A stretch of DNA of 64,000 bases from an uncultured Methanosarcinales archaeon (GCA_964409385.1 CAYPCY010000001.1:232546-296545), one strand, 5' to 3'. Shown: positions 53,017 to 64,000, counted from the stretch's first letter. Made by a program: numbers and translations. The notes: generated by a model from the letters alone, not told the origin.

Positions 53017-54177
53017 ATGATTTTAAAAAATTGTATTTTGTTAAAAAAGAAAAAATCTTTTTTCTTAGAAAGCTTGATTTCTGACCAGTCAATTGAATTA
53101 AATAAATTTACTGCTAAAAAAATATCCCAATTAGGATTCAAAACTAAAAAAAAAACTAAAGGAAATGATAGTTTGTTAATTGATAAACTAAACAATTTTA
53201 ATTTTATTGAAGAAGGCATTTCTAAAATAAAAATAAGCGATAAAACAAATAAGTTAACTAATTTAGGTATTGAAATAACAAGTAACTGTAATTTAGTTTG
53301 TAAACATTGTTATTTGGGAGAAAAAACTAATAAGACATTAACTTTTGAAATTTTTAAAAAATTAATTGATGAAAGTAAAAAATTAGGTATTTATTCTATA
53401 GATATTACTGGTGGAGAACCTTTCACTGACAAAGCATTATTTAAAAAATTAAATTATGTTCGATCTAATAATCTTAAACTAACAATCACAAGCAACAATA
53501 TATTAATTGATAAAAAAATTGCTAAAAAACTTAAACAAATAAATACATCTAGAATGATTGTTTCGCTTTGTGGTTTTGAAAAAGAACATGAACAAATTTA
53601 CGGAAAGAAAACGTTTAATAAAACAATCGATGGAATTAAACATCTTGTTAAACAAAACATTCCTCTTTCGGCCAATTTTATAGTTTTTCCGGATAACGTT
53701 TATTTATTAAAAACAAAAAGATACATGAATTTTTTAAACAATTTAGGAATTGAAAGAATCATTCCAACCCCTGTAATAAATATGGGTTTTGCTTGTCAAA
53801 ATAAAGAGCTTATTCTTACAAATGCAGATTATTTAACTTTTTTTGGAATTGAAAAAAATAAAAAAACAGATTTAAATAAAATAGGTCTTGATTGTGCTGC
53901 TCAAAAAAAAAGAATTTTCATAAAAAGTGATGGATCAGTACTTCCTTGCCATTTATTTTCTAATTTTGAACTTGGCAATATTTATGAGAAGTCTTTAAAA
54001 AATATCATTGATTCTAATAAACAACTCAGTTCATTTAAATATTCTGATTTAGAAGATTGTTTAGATTGTTCAAAAATTACTTTGTGTGGAGGCGGTTGTA
54101 GAGGTCGAGCATATTCTATTAGTGGGAATCTATATGCTAAAGATGTTGAAAGTTGTAGAGGTTATGGATTATGTTAA
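53017..54177 (+). CDS. Radical SAM/SPASM domain protein
   Basis: CNLVCKHC, TGGEP; SPASM C...DGSVLPC...CLDC-x5-CGGGC...C. Confidence 0.95.
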   Translation: MILKNCILLKKKKSFFLESLISDQSIELNKFTAKKISQLGFKTKKKTKGNDSLLIDKLNNFNFIEEGISKIKISDKTNKLTNLGIEITSNCNLVCKHCYLGEKTNKTLTFEIFKKLIDESKKLGIYSIDITGGEPFTDKALFKKLNYVRSNNLKLTITSNNILIDKKIAKKLKQINTSRMIVSLCGFEKEHEQIYGKKTFNKTIDGIKHLVKQNIPLSANFIVFPDNVYLLKTKRYMNFLNNLGIERIIPTPVINMGFACQNKELILTNADYLTFFGIEKNKKTDLNKIGLDCAAQKKRIFIKSDGSVLPCHLFSNFELGNIYEKSLKNIIDSNKQLSSFKYSDLEDCLDCSKITLCGGGCRGRAYSISGNLYAKDVESCRGYGLC

Positions 54178-54617
54178 TAACTGAATTAAAAAATGAAAAT
54201 TTTAATGAACTCGTTAGTTTGAATAAAAAAAACATTAAATTCCATCAACAATTTAACAAATTAAAATATTGTTTAACAAAAGTTGAAAAGAAACAATTAG
54301 AAGTTGAATTAAAACAATTAATAATTTGCAAAACTTCCAAATGTTTTTTATTAAAAAACAAGAAAAAAAGCATAGGATTTATTTTAATTTCTTTTAAATC
54401 CGAACGGGCAAGAATTTGCGAATTATTTATTCTTAAAGAATTTCGTAAATTAGGATTGGGAAAATCATTAATTAATTTTATTATAGACTGGCTAAAGAAA
54501 AATACAAAAACTAAAGAAATTATTTTAGATGTTGATCATTCAAATACAACTGCAATTAATTTTTATGAAAAAATGAACTTAAAAAAGGATTTTATTAGAA
54601 TGAAAACTAGTTTTTAA
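54171..54617 (+). CDS. GNAT family N-acetyltransferase
   Basis: LFI-x-x-EFR-x-x-GLGK-x-L, N-x-x-AINFYEK. Confidence 0.9.
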   Translation: MLITELKNENFNELVSLNKKNIKFHQQFNKLKYCLTKVEKKQLEVELKQLIICKTSKCFLLKNKKKSIGFILISFKSERARICELFILKEFRKLGLGKSLINFIIDWLKKNTKTKEIILDVDHSNTTAINFYEKMNLKKDFIRMKTSF

Positions 54618-55983: not shown

Positions 55984-58143
55984 TTAAGAAACGCTTGATT
56001 TTAGACCTTTAGTGTTTTCTTGAATTACATTTGTGAAAGGTAATGGTACACCTGTTATATTTATGCTTATTATGTTGTTTTCTTGAAATAATTTATTGTT
56101 TTCTAGAAATTGTGTAAATTCACCTATTCCTTCCCATATTGGAATTGGTAAATTACTATTTGTTATTTGTTCTTGCGAATTATAAATGTAGTATTTGTAT
56201 GCTTTGTTTTGGGGTGCATTCCAGGATATTATGAAGGAATCTTGGTGTATTTCTATTTGTACATTTTCTAATGGTTTTGGTTTTGCATAGTATTCTATAT
56301 CAAAAGGAATTTCTGTTATTGTGTTATCTAAAATATCTATTGAAGTATCTAGTTTTGCACAGAGTCTTTGTATTGTTTTATCCCTAATACAAGTATCTTC
56401 TATTAAGCTATGTGTTAATCCTCCATTCCTAATTCCTAAATTATTAATATAATACTCTTTTAAACCATTATTAATAACATATCTTGTATCTATAGTTCCA
56501 ATTAATTCATGAGATACTTCTTCAAATCCAAGAATGTTTTTATTTATTATTAATTCTTCATTTTCTTGTTTGAATGTCGTATTTTCTCCATCTCGCATTA
56601 TTATAAAGTCTATAACAGCTTGTCCATAAAATTGATGAATTATACATTCACAATTCTGATGTGGTGATTCACTACAATAATGTGCTTCTTCAAATAATTC
56701 AATAAACTCATTAGTCTCGCAAGGATTATTTTCTACCGTAATATTATAACTTCCTTGATTGAAATTGTCAATATTATATTCTAGTTGTTCCATTGCTTCC
56801 TCCGTTCCATGATGGTTTAAGACTTCTTCTACAAAATCATATATTGGTTGAAAAATTTCAGGATTGTAAGAATTGTTTATCTTGAAACTTTGTTGGTAAA
56901 TTAAATCTCCTAATAATTGGTCTTCTGAACAATAACTTCCTAGAAGTTTTACTGCTCCGTTAAAATGTTTTGCTGCCCTATTTAAATGATTTCCTGTGAC
57001 ATTTAAATGCCAAGGATTACTTAAAGAAGGTCTTGGACTTCCTGCATTATACGCTGCTGAAGTAAGTATTGGGTCGAAATTTAATCCGAGATTATTCTTG
57101 TTTTTTATATATTTTGCAAGCAAAGGAATTTCTTTTTCAGGATTTTTCAACTCATCTACATGTTCTTGAAATCCAAGATCTTTTAATGCAGTGTCTGGAA
57201 GCACATGACCTATTCCTGTAGAACAAGCCACTTTATTATATTCGTTTTGACAAGAATTAGTTTGTTCAACACAATTTGTTGCTCCCCAATCGTCTACATT
57301 ACCACAACAGTATTTGTCTCTAAGTCCTGGCATTAATAATTCCATTTCGGCTAGTTCTTGATCAGTGTATTTATTGTTAACACTATTTTCACATCTTATA
57401 TTATCTATAGAATAAGGATCTAAAATATTTTTTGCTTCAGTACATAACACCATTACTATTAATTGTTCAGGAACACCTTGTTGTATGGCTGCATTAGTTA
57501 TTATACTTCCATACTCATCCACTACTTGTCCTGCACATGTTTCTTCAAGAAAAGGCACTTTATTTCCTTGTTGATTCTTAACTTCTAATCCTTCTTCCGT
57601 CAATTTCCATTCATAATTTGGTGAGGATGAGTAAGAATGATATTGTGTCAGGTAAGAATTACAAAATCCTTGATCGTTAGTTGTTATGGATATTATTGAA
57701 TCTCCCGTAACTACTTCAGTCTCTATAGTTTTTGTATCTTTATAATATTCTATTTTAGATTCAAAGTTTATATTATTTACATAATCATGTTTTCTCAAGT
57801 ATAGTTTTGTACTATTTTCAAATTCTTTCTTCAAGTATTGTTCATAATCAACCTTGCAATTATTAAATATGGGATCTACAAAATTATCACAATTTTTTTC
57901 ATGACTTGCAGTATAGAAATCAAATAGTGATAGTAACATTGCATTTTTAGAACTTAAGTAAAAATAGTTTTCTCCTTCTTTCTGATTATAAATTCCATTA
58001 GCTATTTTTATTTGATACTCGCCTATTTTATCTGTTCTTCCCGCAGTACTTATTTCTTGGGATGCTGCCACTAAGAAATAAATCATTAATGCAATTAACA
58101 TTAATGTTGTTAATCCTATTAATACTTGACCTTTATTTGACAT
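55984..58143 (-). CDS. Pilin-like (class III signal peptide) protein with lytic transglycosylase SLT-like domain and C-terminal Fn3-like domain
   Basis: MSNKG|QVLIG+TM; Y-x-x-II-x-x-AA-x-x-x-GVP-x-x-LI-x-x-V-x-x-TEA, GIGHVLPDTA, L-x-NPE-x-x-I-x-x-x-AKYI, AAYNAG. Confidence 0.8.
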   Translation of the reverse strand: MSNKGQVLIGLTTLMLIALMIYFLVAASQEISTAGRTDKIGEYQIKIANGIYNQKEGENYFYLSSKNAMLLSLFDFYTASHEKNCDNFVDPIFNNCKVDYEQYLKKEFENSTKLYLRKHDYVNNINFESKIEYYKDTKTIETEVVTGDSIISITTNDQGFCNSYLTQYHSYSSSPNYEWKLTEEGLEVKNQQGNKVPFLEETCAGQVVDEYGSIITNAAIQQGVPEQLIVMVLCTEAKNILDPYSIDNIRCENSVNNKYTDQELAEMELLMPGLRDKYCCGNVDDWGATNCVEQTNSCQNEYNKVACSTGIGHVLPDTALKDLGFQEHVDELKNPEKEIPLLAKYIKNKNNLGLNFDPILTSAAYNAGSPRPSLSNPWHLNVTGNHLNRAAKHFNGAVKLLGSYCSEDQLLGDLIYQQSFKINNSYNPEIFQPIYDFVEEVLNHHGTEEAMEQLEYNIDNFNQGSYNITVENNPCETNEFIELFEEAHYCSESPHQNCECIIHQFYGQAVIDFIIMRDGENTTFKQENEELIINKNILGFEEVSHELIGTIDTRYVINNGLKEYYINNLGIRNGGLTHSLIEDTCIRDKTIQRLCAKLDTSIDILDNTITEIPFDIEYYAKPKPLENVQIEIHQDSFIISWNAPQNKAYKYYIYNSQEQITNSNLPIPIWEGIGEFTQFLENNKLFQENNIISINITGVPLPFTNVIQENTKGLKSSVS

Positions 58144-58771
58144 AGCACAACACCACTTCTAAATTTGATTCTTCTTCTTCGTAAATTATTGGAATTTTTG
58201 CTGTTCTTATAGGAAATTCTAGTTCATTATTAGTTTCTGCCAATTTAGGTATTTTTCCATGAGAACATCTTATATTGTATGGTTTATACTTATTCTCTCT
58301 ACAACCATAAAAGATAGGGTCGCCAAATTGTAAATAATTATTGCCGTAATTTCCTTCTTCTAAAACCATAAATAATGCGTTTTGGAAAGGTTCTATTTCA
58401 TTGAAAAAATTGCTTATTGTATCACGTAATAACACTTTATCAGCAGTTTCTAAATAGCAAGATTTCACACCTATATCTGGTTTTTCTGTAAAAGGATTTG
58501 GACATCCATTATTATGTTCTGTACAGGAAGGATCTGAAAAATCTATTTTTCTTGTTCTTAAAAATTCTGAAATTGTAACATCAGAATTATTCATTTTATA
58601 ATTTAGCAAGGATTGCATTATTAATTCAGTATCTTGATATCCTGATTTTTGATTTATTCCTTCTTGTGTACTTGCTACTTTTGAGGCCATGAATATTAAG
58701 ACTAGGAAAATTATTGCAAATAAGAATAGAACAACCAAATCTACTGTTAATTTCTCTCCTTTCTTGTTCAT
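58133..58771 (-). CDS. Pilin-like protein (class III signal peptide)
   Basis: MNKKG|EKLT + hydrophobic helix. Confidence 0.75.
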   Translation of the reverse strand: MNKKGEKLTVDLVVLFLFAIIFLVLIFMASKVASTQEGINQKSGYQDTELIMQSLLNYKMNNSDVTISEFLRTRKIDFSDPSCTEHNNGCPNPFTEKPDIGVKSCYLETADKVLLRDTISNFFNEIEPFQNALFMVLEEGNYGNNYLQFGDPIFYGCRENKYKPYNIRCSHGKIPKLAETNNELEFPIRTAKIPIIYEEEESNLEVVLCYVK

Positions 58772-59262
58772 TTTGGCATTATTATCAAGGCTTCTAGAGT
58801 TCCTTTTTTTAATATTCCTCCTTGCATTATTGAGATTGGAATTTTCTTTTCCACACTATTATGTGCTGAACTTCCGAATGTTGTTCTGTCTATAGATTGT
58901 TTCCATCTTTCAAACCATTTTTCATTAAGAAATGCTTCTATTGGTGTTATTCCTGGACTTGTTATTGTTAGTCTTGCCGCTATATGTCTTGGACTTGTAT
59001 AGTTTATTTGTTCATTCAGATTTTCTGTTTTGAACTTTTCCAAGTCTATAATTCCTGTTTGTAACTTTCCTCCTTCTTCATAAGTTATAACGTCTGAATA
59101 GTATATTCTTTGAAACAACACATTCATTTCTAATTCTGTAGTATTTAATGCGTTTACTTTGAAAACTTGTACTAGCGCAACGACTGATGTTGCTAGTATT
59201 AATATTACAATTAGTCTAACAACATACGTCATGAAATCATAGAACATTCCTTTTTTTAACAA
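58768..59262 (-). CDS. Pilin-like protein (class III signal peptide)
   Basis: MLKKG|MFYDF + hydrophobic helix. Confidence 0.75.
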   Translation of the reverse strand: MLKKGMFYDFMTYVVRLIVILILATSVVALVQVFKVNALNTTELEMNVLFQRIYYSDVITYEEGGKLQTGIIDLEKFKTENLNEQINYTSPRHIAARLTITSPGITPIEAFLNEKWFERWKQSIDRTTFGSSAHNSVEKKIPISIMQGGILKKGTLEALIIMPK

Positions 59263-60002
59263 ATCGCTAGCACCTCTTTTAGTTTGTTTAAATGATTTCC
59301 TGGGCCTAGATTATTTCCTATTCCTATGTATAAATATTCAATAATTTCAGTTCCTCCAATACTTAAGTAAGGTAATTGCACTTCTTCAAATATTGGGTCT
59401 TGAGGGAACATTATATTATAAGGGTCTGAATATTCTATTTTAGTTCCTTGATTTATTTCTTCAACATGTATTATATAATCATAAACACCTAATGAATTTC
59501 CTATATTAGTTACTTGACAACCTTCTCCTAATACTTCTGAATCTAAGAAATAAGTATATTGTGTGCTTCCGTGTAATCCTACTTTTTTATAGTGTAATAC
59601 TTGCGTATAATCACTTTCATAACTTAATTCGGTTGGTTTCTTCACTATTGTAAAATTGTTAGAGTCTGTTCTTGAAGTTACTATGTTAATATCATTCTTT
59701 CCGAATACTGAAAAGTATGAATTTCCTGGCATTACTTTCGTATTATCTTTTCTTAATAGTATCACCCTGTCAGGATCTAGTATTACTGAATAATTGTGGT
59801 CTTCTCTCAGTTCGTAATATAATACGAAGTTAGGCACTGCTAGTATTAGGTTGTTTGATAGTGCTAAATCTTTAGAATAGTACTTGAACCAGTGATCATC
59901 ATCACTTATGTGTGTTTGCACATAATTAAGTAATGCAAAAACTACTAATGCTGTAAATAATAATTCCAGGATTGGAAAAAGAAGTGCTCTTCCGTTTTTC
60001 AT
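59256..60002 (-). CDS. Pilin-like protein (class III signal peptide)
   Basis: MKNGRA|LLFPILE + hydrophobic helix. Confidence 0.7.
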   Translation of the reverse strand: MKNGRALLFPILELLFTALVVFALLNYVQTHISDDDHWFKYYSKDLALSNNLILAVPNFVLYYELREDHNYSVILDPDRVILLRKDNTKVMPGNSYFSVFGKNDINIVTSRTDSNNFTIVKKPTELSYESDYTQVLHYKKVGLHGSTQYTYFLDSEVLGEGCQVTNIGNSLGVYDYIIHVEEINQGTKIEYSDPYNIMFPQDPIFEEVQLPYLSIGGTEIIEYLYIGIGNNLGPGNHLNKLKEVLAIC

Positions 60003-60038
60003 AAGTAGAATTGGTTAATTGAAACTATAAATATTTTT

Positions 60039-61109
60039 TTACTCTTGTAGAACTGGCTCTCCTTGCTCTGATTGTGCTTGTCCTGTTATTGCACAAGTTA
60101 GTCCATCGCCTACACATCCTATGGTTGATATTGAACAAGGATCATTATAACAAATTGAAGTTGTTGAGAATCTTGCGTATGATTTGCATTCTGTTACTTG
60201 ATCACAATTCAAGGCATAATAATCATTTTCTTTACAAACTCCTATTTTTCTTATTTTATCTTCACAAAAGCAAGGCTCTGTAATTTCTCCTTCGCAATTA
60301 ATTAATTCTTTCAACTCGCATTTCCCAGTAAATGTATCAAAATCACAATATTTATTTTCTGTCTGGTTTATTGTGAATTCTTTCTTTCCCTTGCAGAATT
60401 CATCTGAAGATTGAGAGCATGTTCCTAAGTATTTATTTCTTATCTTTCCTATTATTGATTCTGTTATTAACACATACTCCTTGTTTTGAAATGTCCTTTT
60501 TTCTATATATAATTCAACATTTTCACAACCTCTATGAGCTCCTTCTATATATGGAGGATAATATCCTTTTCCCAGGACTAATTTAGTGAAATTAAAAGGT
60601 TGTAGTGCTGAACTTCTTAAGTTTTCAGAACTTGAAGGATATTCAAAATCGTTTATCCTTTCTCCTATATTACACGCGAGAGAATCAGTTCCTAAAAAAG
60701 TTATTTCTCCTTCTAACACTTCACAACTTAACAAGTCTCTTTTTTCATACAAACAAAGACACGCATTTCCTGCACATTCATCAGGTTTCATCATTTTCTT
60801 ATATAAAGCTCCCAAATTTTGTGCTGATATTTCATCATCTTCCTTCCCAAAGCCTATAATCATAAAATCTTTAGGTAGTGTTGAAGTTATGGTTTCTGTA
60901 TATTCATCAACTTCTAAAGAGTGTGTAACTTGTGAATTTAATAGTTTTAAGAAATTATTTGCATATTTTTCATCTCCTGAACCTTCTGAGAATATGAATG
61001 GGAAAACAAGTGATGTTAATGCTCCTACAAAGAAGAGTATTGCTAAAGCTGCTATTACAAGGTCTTTTATCGCTTCTAGTGTTGTCTCTCCTTTCATGTT
61101 ATTACGCAA
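60039..61109 (-). CDS. Cys-rich pilin-like protein (class III signal peptide)
   Basis: MKG|ETTLE + hydrophobic helix; KP-x-x-C-x-x-x-ACLCL; C-terminal C-x-x-DPC. Confidence 0.75.
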   Translation of the reverse strand: MRNNMKGETTLEAIKDLVIAALAILFFVGALTSLVFPFIFSEGSGDEKYANNFLKLLNSQVTHSLEVDEYTETITSTLPKDFMIIGFGKEDDEISAQNLGALYKKMMKPDECAGNACLCLYEKRDLLSCEVLEGEITFLGTDSLACNIGERINDFEYPSSSENLRSSALQPFNFTKLVLGKGYYPPYIEGAHRGCENVELYIEKRTFQNKEYVLITESIIGKIRNKYLGTCSQSSDEFCKGKKEFTINQTENKYCDFDTFTGKCELKELINCEGEITEPCFCEDKIRKIGVCKENDYYALNCDQVTECKSYARFSTTSICYNDPCSISTIGCVGDGLTCAITGQAQSEQGEPVLQE

Positions 61110-61378
61110 CAGAGTTTTGCTTCTTTATCCTCTTGAGGACATCCGTTTCCTTCCATGACCGTTCCTACAAAACAATATGATTCATCCTGAACACAATAAC
61201 TGTTTGGAATTGCAGAGTCTGAACCACAAGGTGCTGTGGAGTCTGTTGAATTGTTTAAGTCTCTGAATCTTGGCACTAGAATAAATATTATTGTGAATAA
61301 TACTATTACCCCTATAACTATTAATATTAATTGACTCCATACTATTCCTTTAGAATCCATTGTCAAGTAATGCAGCAT
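61094..61378 (-). CDS. Small Cys-rich pilin-like protein
   Basis: MDSKG|IVWSQL + TM; six-Cys tail ending CC. Confidence 0.8.
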   Translation of the reverse strand: MLHYLTMDSKGIVWSQLILIVIGVIVLFTIIFILVPRFRDLNNSTDSTAPCGSDSAIPNSYCVQDESYCFVGTVMEGNGCPQEDKEAKLCCVIT

Positions 61379-61596
61379 TTAGGCAATTCAACATTTGTTT
61401 TGTTGCAATTAGCATTCCCTACAGGATTTTGTATTTCTCCTTCTAAACACCTATCCCTACAAGTTCCTGTACATTCTCCTAGTGTGTCTGCAGTGTCTTT
61501 TGACTTGTCTACAAAAATAAATACTATAACTGCAAGAACAATTATTGCTATTATCGCCATTACTAATGTTGAAAAAGTTACTTCTCCTCTTTTCAT
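61363..61596 (-). CDS. Small Cys-rich pilin-like protein
   Basis: MKRG|EVTFSTLVMAII; Cys-rich tail ending CC. Confidence 0.85.
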   Translation of the reverse strand: MKRGEVTFSTLVMAIIAIIVLAVIVFIFVDKSKDTADTLGECTGTCRDRCLEGEIQNPVGNANCNKTNVELPKCCIT

Positions 61597-61690
61597 ACTA
61601 TTTAATTCTCAGAATTGATTAATATATTTTGTGGTTGTTTCGAAATTTCAATAAAAAGACTTAAAAATAATAACTACTAATGAATACTCT

Positions 61691-61792
61691 ATGAAACAAG
61701 TTCAAATTTCAAAAGATTCAATTATGGAAGCAATCGAAGATAGTGAGTTTGCTAAAAAAAAGAAAGTAAAGCCTTGGAAATTAAAATTGTAA
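61691..61792 (+). CDS. 33-aa antitoxin-like peptide or remnant
   Basis: MKQVQISKDSIMEAIEDSEFAKKKKVKPWKLKL, convergent with and overlapping the relE-like gene. Confidence 0.35.
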   Translation: MKQVQISKDSIMEAIEDSEFAKKKKVKPWKLKL

Positions 61793-62040
61793 ATTTTGTG
61801 AGATCCAACTGCCAAGACAATTATTTTTTTCTTGTTTTCATCAATTTCATAAATCATTCTCAAATCTTTAGCTAAATGACAACTCCATTTTCCTTTTAGT
61901 CTTCCTTTTAATTTATGCGCGTGTAGTTCTTTTCTGGGATTTTTCAATAATTTTTGTAGCTTTATTTTCATTTTTTTATTATAGAATGAATAAAATTGTT
62001 TTTCTGCTAATTTACTTCTTGTCATTAATTCATACATCAA
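61702..62040 (-). CDS. RelE/YafQ-family mRNA interferase toxin
   Basis: AHKLKGRLKGKWSC...DLRMIYEID...VGSH. Confidence 0.88.
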   Translation of the reverse strand: MMYELMTRSKLAEKQFYSFYNKKMKIKLQKLLKNPRKELHAHKLKGRLKGKWSCHLAKDLRMIYEIDENKKKIIVLAVGSHKIYNFNFQGFTFFFLANSLSSIASIIESFEI

Positions 62041-62110
62041 TTAAATTAAAAAAATTACTTTTTATAATAACTGTTTAGAAATTTATTGAATTTTTGCAGA
62101 AATTAAGAAG

Positions 62111-62380
62111 TTATTTCGGAAGCACTTGTCTACAACAAAAATCACCAGAACTTGTCGCATTCGCATCCGCCTTACATCCTGGATCTCCTATCATATATCT
62201 TTGATAACCAGTAGCGCAAGCTCCTGAAGAAGTATCAATACATATTCCGTCGCATTGTTCTAAAGTTTTTTTAGTAAGATTTAATTTTCCTGTAAATATT
62301 AGTATAACAACCATTAACACAATTATAGCTATTACTGCCATTATTATTGTACTAAATGTTAATTCAGCTTTAGTTGTCAT
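62111..62380 (-). CDS. Small Cys-rich pilin-like protein
   Basis: MTTKA|ELTFSTIIMAVI; six-Cys tail with CC. Confidence 0.85.
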   Translation of the reverse strand: MTTKAELTFSTIIMAVIAIIVLMVVILIFTGKLNLTKKTLEQCDGICIDTSSGACATGYQRYMIGDPGCKADANATSSGDFCCRQVLPK

Positions 62381-62655
62381 ATGTACTTCTTACAACACAC
62401 ATTTCCAGTACTACATTTAAGATCTGCAGCGTAAGTATAACTTTGAGTTATTGAAGCATCATCACAAGCTTCTTGTGGAGTTTGAGTTCCTTCGAAATAA
62501 TTTGCGCATATCCCATTATTTTTTACACAATCAGTTACTGCTCCTTGGAACAAGTTCAACCTTCCTGTAAATATCAATGTTAGAACTACTAGAACTATTA
62601 GTACCAATGCTGCAGATACTATAACACCTAAAGTTAGATCTCCTTTCTTTTGCAT
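62377..62655 (-). CDS. Small Cys-rich pilin-like protein
   Basis: MQKKG|DLTLGVIV; six-Cys tail with CC. Confidence 0.85.
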   Translation of the reverse strand: MQKKGDLTLGVIVSAALVLIVLVVLTLIFTGRLNLFQGAVTDCVKNNGICANYFEGTQTPQEACDDASITQSYTYAADLKCSTGNVCCKKYI

Positions 62656-62695
62656 GTTCTAAAATCTAATTATTTACTATATAAACTTTTCGTAA

Positions 62696-63730
62696 TCATA
62701 CACAAAGATTACCATCCCACGCACAATTTCCAAATATGCAAGGATCTTCATTGCATAATTCTTCATTGAATAATTCTGATACGTGACCTCTTACATTATA
62801 ATCTGAACATTCTTGATAATTTTCACAGTCTGAAGATACTTTGAAGTTTGTAAGAACATCTAATTCACCAATATCAAATCCGTAATCGTATGACATTATA
62901 GTTCCTAAACAAAGATCTGATGAATTTTCATTAATTAAAGGAATATAGGAAACTCCTGTAGTGCCGTCATCTTTCTTATGAAAACACACACAATCATTTG
63001 TAGGAGTTATATATCCTATTATGTTTAAATCAAATATTTTCTTTCCACATTCTGTTAAAATAGTTGATTCTTTCTTATCGCAATTATTTGTTCTTTGAAA
63101 TCCTAAATCTATAATACAAACTTTTTTATTTATGTTTATTTCGAAATATGTTTCTTGATTTGTTAATGTGTGTCCTTCATAATAATCAGTATTTTGGTGT
63201 TTATTATTAAGTTGAGATATTATACATTCTATATCTCCCTCTCTACAAAATGGTTCTCCAGAACAGTCCCCTTCATTACATTCTTGATCACAAGTTTCTC
63301 CTTGGAATATCATTTCTTCTCCACCTCCATAGATACAAACACATTCGCTAGTGTAAAAGTAAGAACAAGCAGGAACATATTCAAAAATACAATCTACTTG
63401 TTCGAGATCATTATTCCAATCTTCTTGTTTTTCTATTAAACAAACATAATAAGAATCTGCCAGTAAAGAACTAGATTCTTTATGCAGTATAGAATCTTCT
63501 AAATTTGTTGCTTCTTTTCCGCCGCAAAGAGTTTGAGGTTGTGTATCCATACATAGTTTTGGTGGAGTCACTTCATCTTTTAACTTATCCAGTCCTAATA
63601 GTTTTCTTAAATCCTTTAATTTTTCAACAGGATTCATGAAGAAGGATATGAAGAAGAACACTATTATTACTGCTATAATCAATCCAATTAGTTTTTGCCA
63701 TTGGCCTTTAGAAGAATGGTAGACTTTCAA
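62696..63730 (-). CDS. Cys-rich pilin-like protein (class III signal peptide)
   Basis: SSKG|QWQKL + TM; C-terminal C-x-x-Y...C-x-x-DPC...C-x-W. Confidence 0.75.
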   Translation of the reverse strand: MKVYHSSKGQWQKLIGLIIAVIIVFFFISFFMNPVEKLKDLRKLLGLDKLKDEVTPPKLCMDTQPQTLCGGKEATNLEDSILHKESSSLLADSYYVCLIEKQEDWNNDLEQVDCIFEYVPACSYFYTSECVCIYGGGEEMIFQGETCDQECNEGDCSGEPFCREGDIECIISQLNNKHQNTDYYEGHTLTNQETYFEININKKVCIIDLGFQRTNNCDKKESTILTECGKKIFDLNIIGYITPTNDCVCFHKKDDGTTGVSYIPLINENSSDLCLGTIMSYDYGFDIGELDVLTNFKVSSDCENYQECSDYNVRGHVSELFNEELCNEDPCIFGNCAWDGNLCV

Positions 63731-63845
63731 TAATATTCACCCCGTCTTCTCTCATTATAAAGATTATTGCCATCATTATGAATATGAATATTACTGCTAG
63801 TATTAAGTAAACTAGTGTTGATTCCATTCCTTTTTTTGAATTCAT
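63708..63845 (-). CDS. 45-aa Flp-like minimal pilin
   Basis: MNSKKG|MESTLVYLILAVIFIFIMMAIIFIMREDGVNIIESLPFF; not in ORF track. Confidence 0.75.
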   Translation of the reverse strand: MNSKKGMESTLVYLILAVIFIFIMMAIIFIMREDGVNIIESLPFF

Positions 63846-63877
63846 AGTTTCTTTATTATTTGTTTAGTATTTATTTT

Positions 63878-64000
63878 TTACCCTCTCATGTTTGTTGGTA
63901 GGAAGTTACAGCCTATGTCTTCTAGTGCTGTAGGTTTTGATTCTACTATTAATACTGAGGCCATCCAATCTACTTCTTTTTCTTTGAATATTGAATAAAT
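63878..64000 (-). CDS. C-terminal fragment of an upstream gene
   Basis: Frame open from the window edge: ...DIGCNFLPTNMRG*. Confidence 0.55.
   Translation of the reverse strand: MYSIFKEKEVDWMASVLIVESKPTALEDIGCNFLPTNMRG

Follow-up and report, generated by a model that had tools for sequence, protein, structure and literature searches.

Why should an archaeon maintain a long row of pilin-like genes, and why should this row end in a gene for a putative murein hydrolase? The question arises from a stretch of 64,000 nucleotides (GCA_964409385.1 CAYPCY010000001.1:232546-296545; 'the window' hereafter), deposited under an uncultured Methanosarcinales archaeon and corresponding to C1:232546-296545 of the source genome, G000. 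At window positions 55984-63845, on the minus strand, 12 open reading frames (ORFs) follow each other: 11 with class III-type (prepilin-type) N-termini and one toxin gene. The original prediction, made from the sequence of the window alone, took them for an array encoding a complex type IV or Tad-like pilus. Here we show that the array comprises at least 16 motif-bearing genes once the contig past the window edge is included, that a co-oriented array is found at the same place in 22 of 32 relatives, and that the protein at its end has relatives in which a common N-terminal module is followed by different murein hydrolases. With moderate confidence we read the stretch as the downstream half of a ∼25-kb surface-organelle block, conserved in Woesearchaeota-type DPANN archaea, for a hydrolase-bearing type IV-like assembly directed against bacteria.

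The source genome comprises 0.80 Mb in 15 contigs with ∼30% G+C. The DNA sequencing runs containing the stretch originate from marine or seawater metagenomes of two studies; among the runs listed there are no RNA sequencing runs that contain it.

Class III signal-peptide motifs cluster at one locus

Using a FlaFind-like definition of the class III signal-peptide motif, we examined 959 greedy ORFs from the whole genome. A match had to have [KR][GA] among its first 45 residues and, after it, an 18-residue window with a mean hydropathy of at least 2.0. The scan returned 41 matches genome-wide, 15 of which are contiguous in C1:288529-301073 (hypergeometric P for at least 15 of 19, 6e-19), and such clustering is far beyond chance. 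Being crude, the scan misses two evident members, a 77-amino acid (aa) gene and a 1002-aa protein. The 11 leaders in the window are basic, 3-11 residues long and end in G or A, and about 20 hydrophobic residues follow. All 11 N-termini agree with those listed in the original prediction, and the two exceptions it had named also hold: the relE-like gene gives a YafQ_toxin match (E 1e-9), and the truncated ORF at the window edge is the C-terminus of a 280-aa gene.

A prepilin peptidase site requires a small residue at the boundary between leader and helix; a plain signal anchor does not. In three array families that are mutually divergent (13-22% identity) we found G or A right after the last basic residue in 18/21, 18/19 and 16/19 members, respectively (52/59 in total). 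The background is 24 of 156 (15%) among other ORFs of the genome with an N-terminal hydrophobic stretch.

A terminal protein with a putative carrier and an exchangeable hydrolase

The array ends in a 719-aa protein (55984..58143, minus strand; leader MSNKG/Q, where the slash marks the end of the leader), with an N-terminal module at about residues 1-165 and a divergent SLT/GH23-like domain at about residues 205-400. A word-seeded search of 5.8 billion proteins returned five homologues, namely two fragments of close relatives and three bacterial proteins that share the SLT-like region and its motifs. Searched against 200 genomes of the order, the protein gave one match, in G043, located at the same place beside the RPA-like gene and carrying an extra Amidase_2 domain together with the same SLT-like domain in the same position. 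There were no matches in the PDB (phmmer). The family of terminal proteins became visible because position and profiles were used, and not the 719-aa sequence alone.

Positional counterparts in relatives share the N-terminal module, which consists of a class III leader, a helix and a stretch of the form IGExQ...YQxAE..LFY.D.AAK.S. What lies C-terminal to the module varies among relatives: SLT, Peptidase_M23, Amidase_2/Amidase_3, VanY/M15, glucosaminidase, NlpC/P60 or 3D domains, with a GDSL lipase added twice among the terminal-gene counterparts. A Pfam murein hydrolase domain (E<0.01) occurs in the arrays of 19 of 23 relatives, 16 of them above the Pfam cut-off, with weak matches in L048, L050 and L060; at the same threshold none was seen in the arrays of L054, L056, L057 and L071. 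In 15 of the arrays examined, that of G000 among them, hydrolase and pilin-like module form a single chain, and in L063, L064 and L074 the module and a Sec-type hydrolase are encoded by adjoining separate genes. GDSL/SGNH lipase domains accompany murein hydrolases at the array end of three relatives (L064:138-2381, L053:272-4045 and L068:3033-7277), which hints at an action on lipids or O-acetyl groups besides glycan and peptide bonds. Hydrolase domains are also found on members of two other array families: glucosaminidase plus VanY, or SLT, in the 356-aa family (L052:2553-4412 and L053:7497-9428), and 3D in the 248-aa family (L053:5340-7193, E 3e-13).

A profile of the module, run with HMMER against 1.84 billion representative proteins, matched 2085 proteins at E<=1e-3, 1386 at E<=1e-10 and 168 at E<=1e-30. 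By homologue search with the module sequence a single protein had been obtained, probably owing to the word filter of that search. The match always covers residues 1 to ∼170, in host proteins of 144-1257 aa. From the best 150 we scanned the first 108 proteins of at least 230 aa for domains, some of which are also present in the relatives' loci. In 46 of these 108 a murein hydrolase domain (E<=1e-4) starts at residue 190-290: M23 in 14, VanY/M15 in 11, SLT in 10, Amidase_2 in five, glucosaminidase in three, NlpC/P60 in two and 3D in one. Among the others there are one with Peptidase_C39_2, three with fn3 only and 58 with no family. Judged by its sequence, the terminal protein is of the modular-pilin design, with an N-terminal carrier and a varying module in one chain; the carrier may be a true pilin, depending on the pilin tests considered below. 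The original prediction had seen the SLT protein as a terminal effector, and a conserved terminal member whose catalytic module is swapped for other murein hydrolases fits this role.

As to the SLT-like domain itself, a profile of the region, built with the G043 and the bacterial homologues, gave 12 matches in the PDB, all of them lytic transglycosylases and all weak (E 0.08-0.74). When aligned by hhalign to the canonical SLT profile of the relatives' terminal proteins, the region matched over 112 columns (97.2%, E 4e-11). In this alignment Glu236, within CTEA, falls on the invariant catalytic Glu of the QES motif, and AAYNAGS on AAYNxG. We regard it as a lytic transglycosylase domain of the GH23 type that is divergent and putatively active.

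The genome holds a second pair of related genes at C1:55420-57473 (L078 3421-5474), where a 98-aa six-cysteine mini-pilin paralogue is immediately followed by a 586-aa Sec-type protein. The SLT domain of the latter is above the cut-off (E 2e-5, 24.6 bits).

The array is conserved beside the RPA-like gene

RadA and an RPA-like gene lie immediately downstream of the array. For comparison we used G000, the sole member of its own family in the collection, together with 40 relatives, each from a different family. The RPA-like gene is present in all 41 genomes. Up to 15 kb upstream of it could be taken from 32 of the 40 relatives; the contigs of the other eight end within ∼3.4 kb of the gene. In 22 of the 32, between 4 and 15 co-oriented motif genes abut the RPA-like gene, a synteny of the kind that the original prediction had proposed to inspect across Woesearchaeota. 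The remaining relatives comprise L067 with three motif genes, L070 with seven on the other strand and eight with 0-2. Several genomes in which the RPA-like neighbourhood is free of the array carry the array elsewhere; in G007, G009, G021 and G038 the 164-aa family is located on other contigs or nearby on the opposite strand.

Two ORFs on the opposite strand separate RadA from the RPA-like gene (window 53017-54617, plus). One encodes a 386-aa radical-SAM-looking protein, which has CxxxCxxC near residue 90 and is Cys-rich at its C-terminus; the other, of 148 aa, looks like an acetyltransferase.

Gene content of the array

All array genes in the window are on the minus strand and are closely packed; overlaps of 4-23 nt occur at 7 of the 12 gene junctions, in line with the original observation that many genes overlap. 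Next to the terminal gene lies a 212-aa pilin-like protein (58133..58771; leader MNKKG/E), the positional orthologue of a weakly conserved family. Used alone it has no phmmer match in the relatives' loci, and it aligns with 18 positional orthologues that show an LLNYLRTP-type motif and an invariant Pro. The 164-aa pilin-like protein (58768..59262; MLKKG/M) represents a near-universal single-copy family of the class. There are 17 sequences of it in the relatives' loci. Among 401 genomes sampled from the phylum, with a completeness of 90% or more, its profile is matched in 310, nearly always in single copy (306 of 397 when four unpublished genomes are left out). The family also occurs in other orders of the class. 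Its nearest Atlas clusters contain unnamed archaeal proteins, most commonly from Candidatus Woesearchaeota or Nanobdellota. An assignment to DUF7287 or DUF7288, with Atlas scores of 0.83 and 0.79, was rejected, as none of the 17 family members matches at E<=1.

The 248-aa pilin-like protein (59256..60002; MKNGRA/L) and the Cys-rich 356-aa pilin-like protein (60039..61109; NMKG/E) yielded families of 27 and 37 sequences, queries included, in iterated profile searches. Four six-cysteine mini-pilins are located farther upstream, of 94 aa (61094..61378; DSKG/I), 77 aa (61363..61596; MKRG/E), 89 aa (62111..62380; TTKA/E) and 92 aa (62377..62655; QKKG/D). Their family has 80-100 aa and the pattern C..GG.C...C...C...CC, with exactly six cysteines in 20 of 28 members, and phmmer found 18, 24 and 26 matches in the relatives' loci for the 77-, 89- and 92-aa proteins and six for the 94-aa one. 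The 344-aa Cys-rich pilin-like protein (62696..63730; SSKG/Q) is poorly conserved, with a counterpart in one relative only by both phmmer and iterated profile.

The last ORF complete within the window encodes a tiny pilin-like protein of 45 aa (63708..63845; SKKG/M) that is hardly more than a leader and a helix. An iterated profile collected 19 sequences, consisting of the query, ORFs of 41-57 aa from relatives' arrays and some longer mini-pilins; counterparts of 41-57 aa are present in many relatives' arrays. The original prediction had described an unannotated Flp-like gene here. The gene stands as a conserved ORF of the relatives' arrays, and the likeness to Flp is not supported, as no Flp family of Pfam or NCBIfam gave a match.

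At the window edge lies the C-terminal end of the 280-aa gene (63878..64000; the whole gene is L007 424-1266), a paralogue of the adjoining 257-aa gene. The 280-aa protein has a hydrophobic segment at both its N- and its C-terminus, and the two paralogues have 15 and 13 matches in the relatives' loci. Beyond the edge the contig runs on for 20.5 kb and contains five more motif-bearing genes, of 257 (MKKG/F), 159, 156, 318 and 153 aa, the last four with nine matches each in the relatives' loci. A 1002-aa Cys-rich protein (L007 11177-14185, minus strand, equal to C1:307176-310184) repeats a 21-residue leader segment containing SSSKGQ three times, with a hydrophobic helix after the last copy only (KG/Q). 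We also found two Sec-type giants of 906 aa (TSP3/Big_13 matches and a C-terminal anchor; four matches in the relatives' loci) and 904 aa, a 1198-aa S8 protease with PKD domains and a leucine-rich repeat-type protein.

Sec-type TSP3 giants flank the distal array end in several families, here at L007 5071-10502 (minus strand) and in relatives at L049:262-4608, L050:10911-14048, L051:40-2811, L060:11590-14610 and L066:9555-13238. They seem to be part of the same gene block.

The array gene in the window that is not pilin-like encodes a RelE/YafQ/ParE-like toxin of 112 aa (61702..62040, minus strand), which besides the YafQ_toxin match has one to ParE_toxin (E 2e-6); no antitoxin ORF was seen beside it. 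Toxin-antitoxin genes are inserted in the conserved array at two places, this lone toxin ORF in the window and, just past the edge, an opposite-strand pair of 73 and 87 aa at L007 2229-2710 (plus strand; C1:298228-298709), the second ORF of which looks RelE-like.

Candidate motors and predicted folds

According to the original prediction the missing machinery might lie past the right edge of the window. This is not the case: no ATPase, platform protein/TadC or prepilin peptidase is encoded in the remaining 20.5 kb of the contig, and the machinery is found on C2, on C6 and at C1:179-183 kb. The genome contains a single A24 prepilin peptidase (C6:14312-14632, 63.4 bits), in an ORF of 266 aa with Peptidase_A24 at E 4.5e-16, the archaeal C-terminal domain Arc_PepC_II at E 3e-4 and a GGGD motif. 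Near it, at C6:16834-17606 (L009 7835-8607), two small ORFs have no Pfam match, and the 142-aa one starts with KKG/LSPLITT..., which we take to be an N-terminus of the classic archaeal pilin type.

On C2 a 479-aa T2SSE ATPase (E 8e-37) is accompanied by two T2SSF platform genes (273 and 339 aa), two pilin-like genes and four proteins whose N-termini are of the canonical RGQAALEF type, including one larger than 1,600 aa. The ATPase and prepilin peptidase on which the original prediction of a pilus depended are therefore present in the genome. One ATPase with two platform-protein genes characterizes archaeal 'system 1' (PMC13705601), and the C2 locus, with its ORFs of 479, 273 and 339 aa, has this Epd-like layout.

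A second T2SSE ATPase, of 754 aa (E 4e-14), lies at C1:181-183 kb and adjoins a 735-aa polytopic protein; the pair occupies C1:178861-183282 (L075 4859-9282), and three paralogous membrane proteins of 182-207 aa are located at L075 10413-12181. The 735-aa protein recurs in 40 of 41 genomes of the order with 38-60% identity and is far better conserved than any pilin-like gene, compared with T2SSF matches in 35 of the 41 genomes only. The cognate motor of the array is uncertain because six genomes give no T2SSF match, including the array-bearing G025; G025 and G032, neither of which gave a T2SSF match, both have full arrays and the 735-aa protein. Possibly the 735-aa protein is a divergent platform and belongs to the array's real motor. 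Its PDB matches include none of the platform type, hhalign related it to the two C2 platform proteins at 36% and 11% only, and 11 of its orthologues have no T2SSF match; five further orthologues touch PF00482 below the cut-off, with per-genome E of 3e-4 to 8e-4.

We modelled two array proteins with AlphaFold2. The model of the 164-aa protein (17-row alignment, pLDDT 89) predicts a helix at residues 3-36, a second helix and a sheet of four to six strands; that of the N-terminal module of the 719-aa protein (21 rows, pLDDT 76.5) predicts helices at 3-82 and 100-116 and three strands. Both predicted folds start with a long N-terminal helix, the feature without which the original pilin assignment would not hold.

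Discussion

These data are most simply explained by a type IV filament-like surface structure with its subunits and its motor encoded at different places. The array proteins would be exported by way of their class III leaders, which the single A24 peptidase would trim. Assembly of the subunits, through their N-terminal helices, would fall to a type IV filament ATPase and platform from another locus, with either the system 1-like C2 locus or the 754-aa ATPase and 735-aa protein at C1:179-183 kb as candidate motor. The four mini-pilins of 77-94 aa and the helix-only protein of 45 aa are the likely bulk subunits, and the 248-, 164- and 212-aa proteins of the window, together with those of 153, 318, 156 and 159 aa past its edge, might be minor, initiating or tip subunits. 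At the surface or tip of the structure the terminal modular pilin would present its murein hydrolase. The latter would act on the peptidoglycan of a bacterial partner or prey, by binding to it or by opening it locally. To our knowledge murein is absent from these archaea, and it is the substrate of SLT, M23, amidase, VanY, glucosaminidase and NlpC/P60 domains alike; the most likely target of the hydrolase is therefore the wall of bacteria. Leader cleavage, polymerisation, the roles of the subunits and the bacterial target are all things that we infer, as are the possible purposes: attachment, entry, feeding or killing.

Several observations weigh against this interpretation. With the exception of a value at chance level for the 257-aa protein against ComGD (E 0.005, 17 bits, cut-off 70), none of the pilin models of Pfam and NCBIfam matches an array protein at E<=0.1; the same models also fail on the canonical-looking pilins of the C2 locus. 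A short basic leader followed by a hydrophobic helix is typical of plain signal anchors, too. Foldseek found nothing for either model in the PDB at E<=0.001 and no solved pilin, and the best VIA Z for the 164-aa model, 6.0, was obtained with PDC/Cache-type sensor domains and not with pilins. The sole family signal among the pilin-like array proteins of the window is the SLT match of the 719-aa protein, which is itself below threshold (PF01464, residues 309-369, 16.5 bits with a cut-off of 21.3, E 0.006), and in the hhalign alignment ∼10 inserted residues break up its GLMQ motif, which there reads G-N...E-Q. No hydrolase domain was recognised in 58 of the 108 module proteins scanned. The ATPase and platform genes are located outside the array locus, and among the six of 41 genomes without a T2SSF match there is the complete single-contig genome G025 with its 11-gene array. 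As regards the type IV/Tad-like pilus of the original prediction, the conserved set of class III signal-peptide genes bears out its general part, and its Tad-like part is not borne out, since neither the 45-aa ORF nor any other array protein matches Flp or Tad families of Pfam or NCBIfam.

Three other explanations have to be considered. For the class III-signal sugar-binding proteins of Sulfolobales a bindosome-type assembly has been proposed, and the array might encode something similar, a bindosome-like or pseudopilus assembly in which class III leaders serve for export and anchoring of an enzyme or adhesin complex and no extended pilus is made. It would suit this idea that the members include many large enzymes or globular proteins rich in Cys instead of typical small pilins, that the motor genes are unlinked to the array and that the models match no solved pilin. 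However, the four mini-pilin paralogues and the helix-only 45-aa gene are conserved and resemble bulk filament subunits, and the main Epd pilin likewise has no globular domain (PMC13705601), and we consider such an assembly unlikely. We give a much smaller chance to the idea that the array encodes plain surface proteins with uncleaved type II signal anchors, in which K-K-G/A would merely reflect the positive-inside rule and each protein would act as an independently tethered exoenzyme or adhesin. The missing family and structural matches to pilins would agree with this. Yet a boundary G or A is the rule in the three divergent families and not in the background, the genome retains a prepilin peptidase, and gene order and translational coupling are conserved across families of an order.

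The least probable explanation, in our view, is a type II secretion-like apparatus with a piston of pilin-like proteins by which the Sec-exported giants and hydrolases are expelled; the hydrolases would be soluble antibacterial or scavenging enzymes rather than borne on a filament. It could draw on the separate Sec-type hydrolase gene of three relatives, on the second SLT protein of the genome, also Sec-type, and on secreted archaeal hydrolases that have been described to kill bacteria (PMC12352652). It is at odds with the covalent fusion of hydrolase and pilin-like module in 15 arrays, including that of G000, and in such archaea there is no outer membrane that would have to be crossed.

Going beyond the single locus, the type IV-like filament might be shared across the class. 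We put forward, as a tentative proposal that is possible rather than probable, that Woesearchaeota-type DPANN archaea have a common contact organelle consisting of a mini-pilin type IV-like filament with a tip on which interchangeable murein hydrolases are borne by a common carrier. If this were true, much of this very large group of archaea would have bacteria, and not other archaea, as its hosts or prey, and the type of hydrolase would record the kind of cell wall that each lineage attacks. We know of no Woesearchaeota-type archaeon with an established host, and all cultivated DPANN archaea known to us live on other archaea. A conserved block of this kind, in which pilus-type subunits are joined to enzymes with bacterial peptidoglycan as their sole substrate, provides a concrete molecular handle on this host question, and the hydrolase type on the common carrier could be used as a marker to be matched to co-occurring bacteria. 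An array with a terminal wall-cutting enzyme points to a contact organelle aimed at bacteria.

Comparison with known systems

The closest described layout is that of archaeal 'system 1' (Epd-like), and not that of Tad. The Epd pili of Methanococcus maripaludis (system 1; clade 1 of Makarova 2016) similarly have class III leaders, cut there by an A24 peptidase, and, like the C2 locus, one ATPase with two platform genes (PMC13705601, PMC4858521). They also have many minor pilin-like genes, many of which lie outside the motor locus, and a main pilin without a globular domain. The main text of PMC4858521 makes no use of the word 'peptidoglycan'. In contrast to Epd, the locus described here has at least 16 pilin-like genes in a conserved block of their own, far from any motor, and includes six-cysteine mini-pilins, giant secreted proteins and, at the end of the block, a murein hydrolase. 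A further likeness is to the tip complexes of bacterial type IV pili and type II secretion systems, in which four minor pilins are combined with PilY1, or GspH-I-J-K act together; here, too, about four minor pilin-like genes lie beside a large putative tip protein. A relation in sequence or fold to these bacterial complexes was not found with family models, Foldseek or VIA.

The modular design of the terminal protein resembles that of PilB and PilC of Streptococcus sanguinis (PMC8179133), where a pilin carrier is linked to an exchangeable functional module, in a protein for which a place at the filament tip is assumed. Their pilins are bacterial and their modules are adhesins, lectins and others, whereas we describe an archaeal carrier family with murein hydrolases; the main text of PMC8179133 contains none of the words 'archaea', 'peptidoglycan', 'hydrolase' and 'lysozyme'. 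Type IV pili of Saccharibacteria (PMC9894109, PMC11623550) offer a parallel in way of life, since ultrasmall host-dependent cells find and hold their bacterial hosts by means of pili, but these are bacterial systems with canonical pilins, and no hydrolase-bearing pilin is mentioned in the two abstracts.

On the side of the enzymes, earlier papers have described large murein-like lytic transglycosylase proteins in Pacearchaeota and Woesearchaeota and have raised the idea of bacterial hosts (PMC8204110, PMC9723730). Organisms, kind of enzyme and the inference towards bacterial peptidoglycan are the same as here. The main texts of both papers contain no 'pilin' and do not mention pili; nor do these texts describe a class III leader, a carrier module, a conserved array or an exchange between seven hydrolase families, and families in the supplement of PMC8204110 ('Module 98', 51 families) may overlap with array families. 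Secreted archaeal hydrolases that kill bacteria have been reported with only Sec and Tat signals considered (PMC12352652). The diversity of archaeal type IV filaments is covered by PMC4858521 and PMC13705601, the latter a census of 2026 in which DPANN ATPase and platform genes are adjacent, the pilins are 'scattered', the function is unclear and no system is assigned. The conserved array helps to explain these 'scattered' DPANN pilin genes. In the main texts of the literature considered, which included few subscription journals, we found no publication in which murein hydrolases are tied to class III leaders, to a pilin carrier or to a conserved pilin array. In conclusion, woesearchaeotal murein hydrolases, type IV filaments and modular pilins have each been known before, and what our findings add is the link between pilin-like proteins and these hydrolases.

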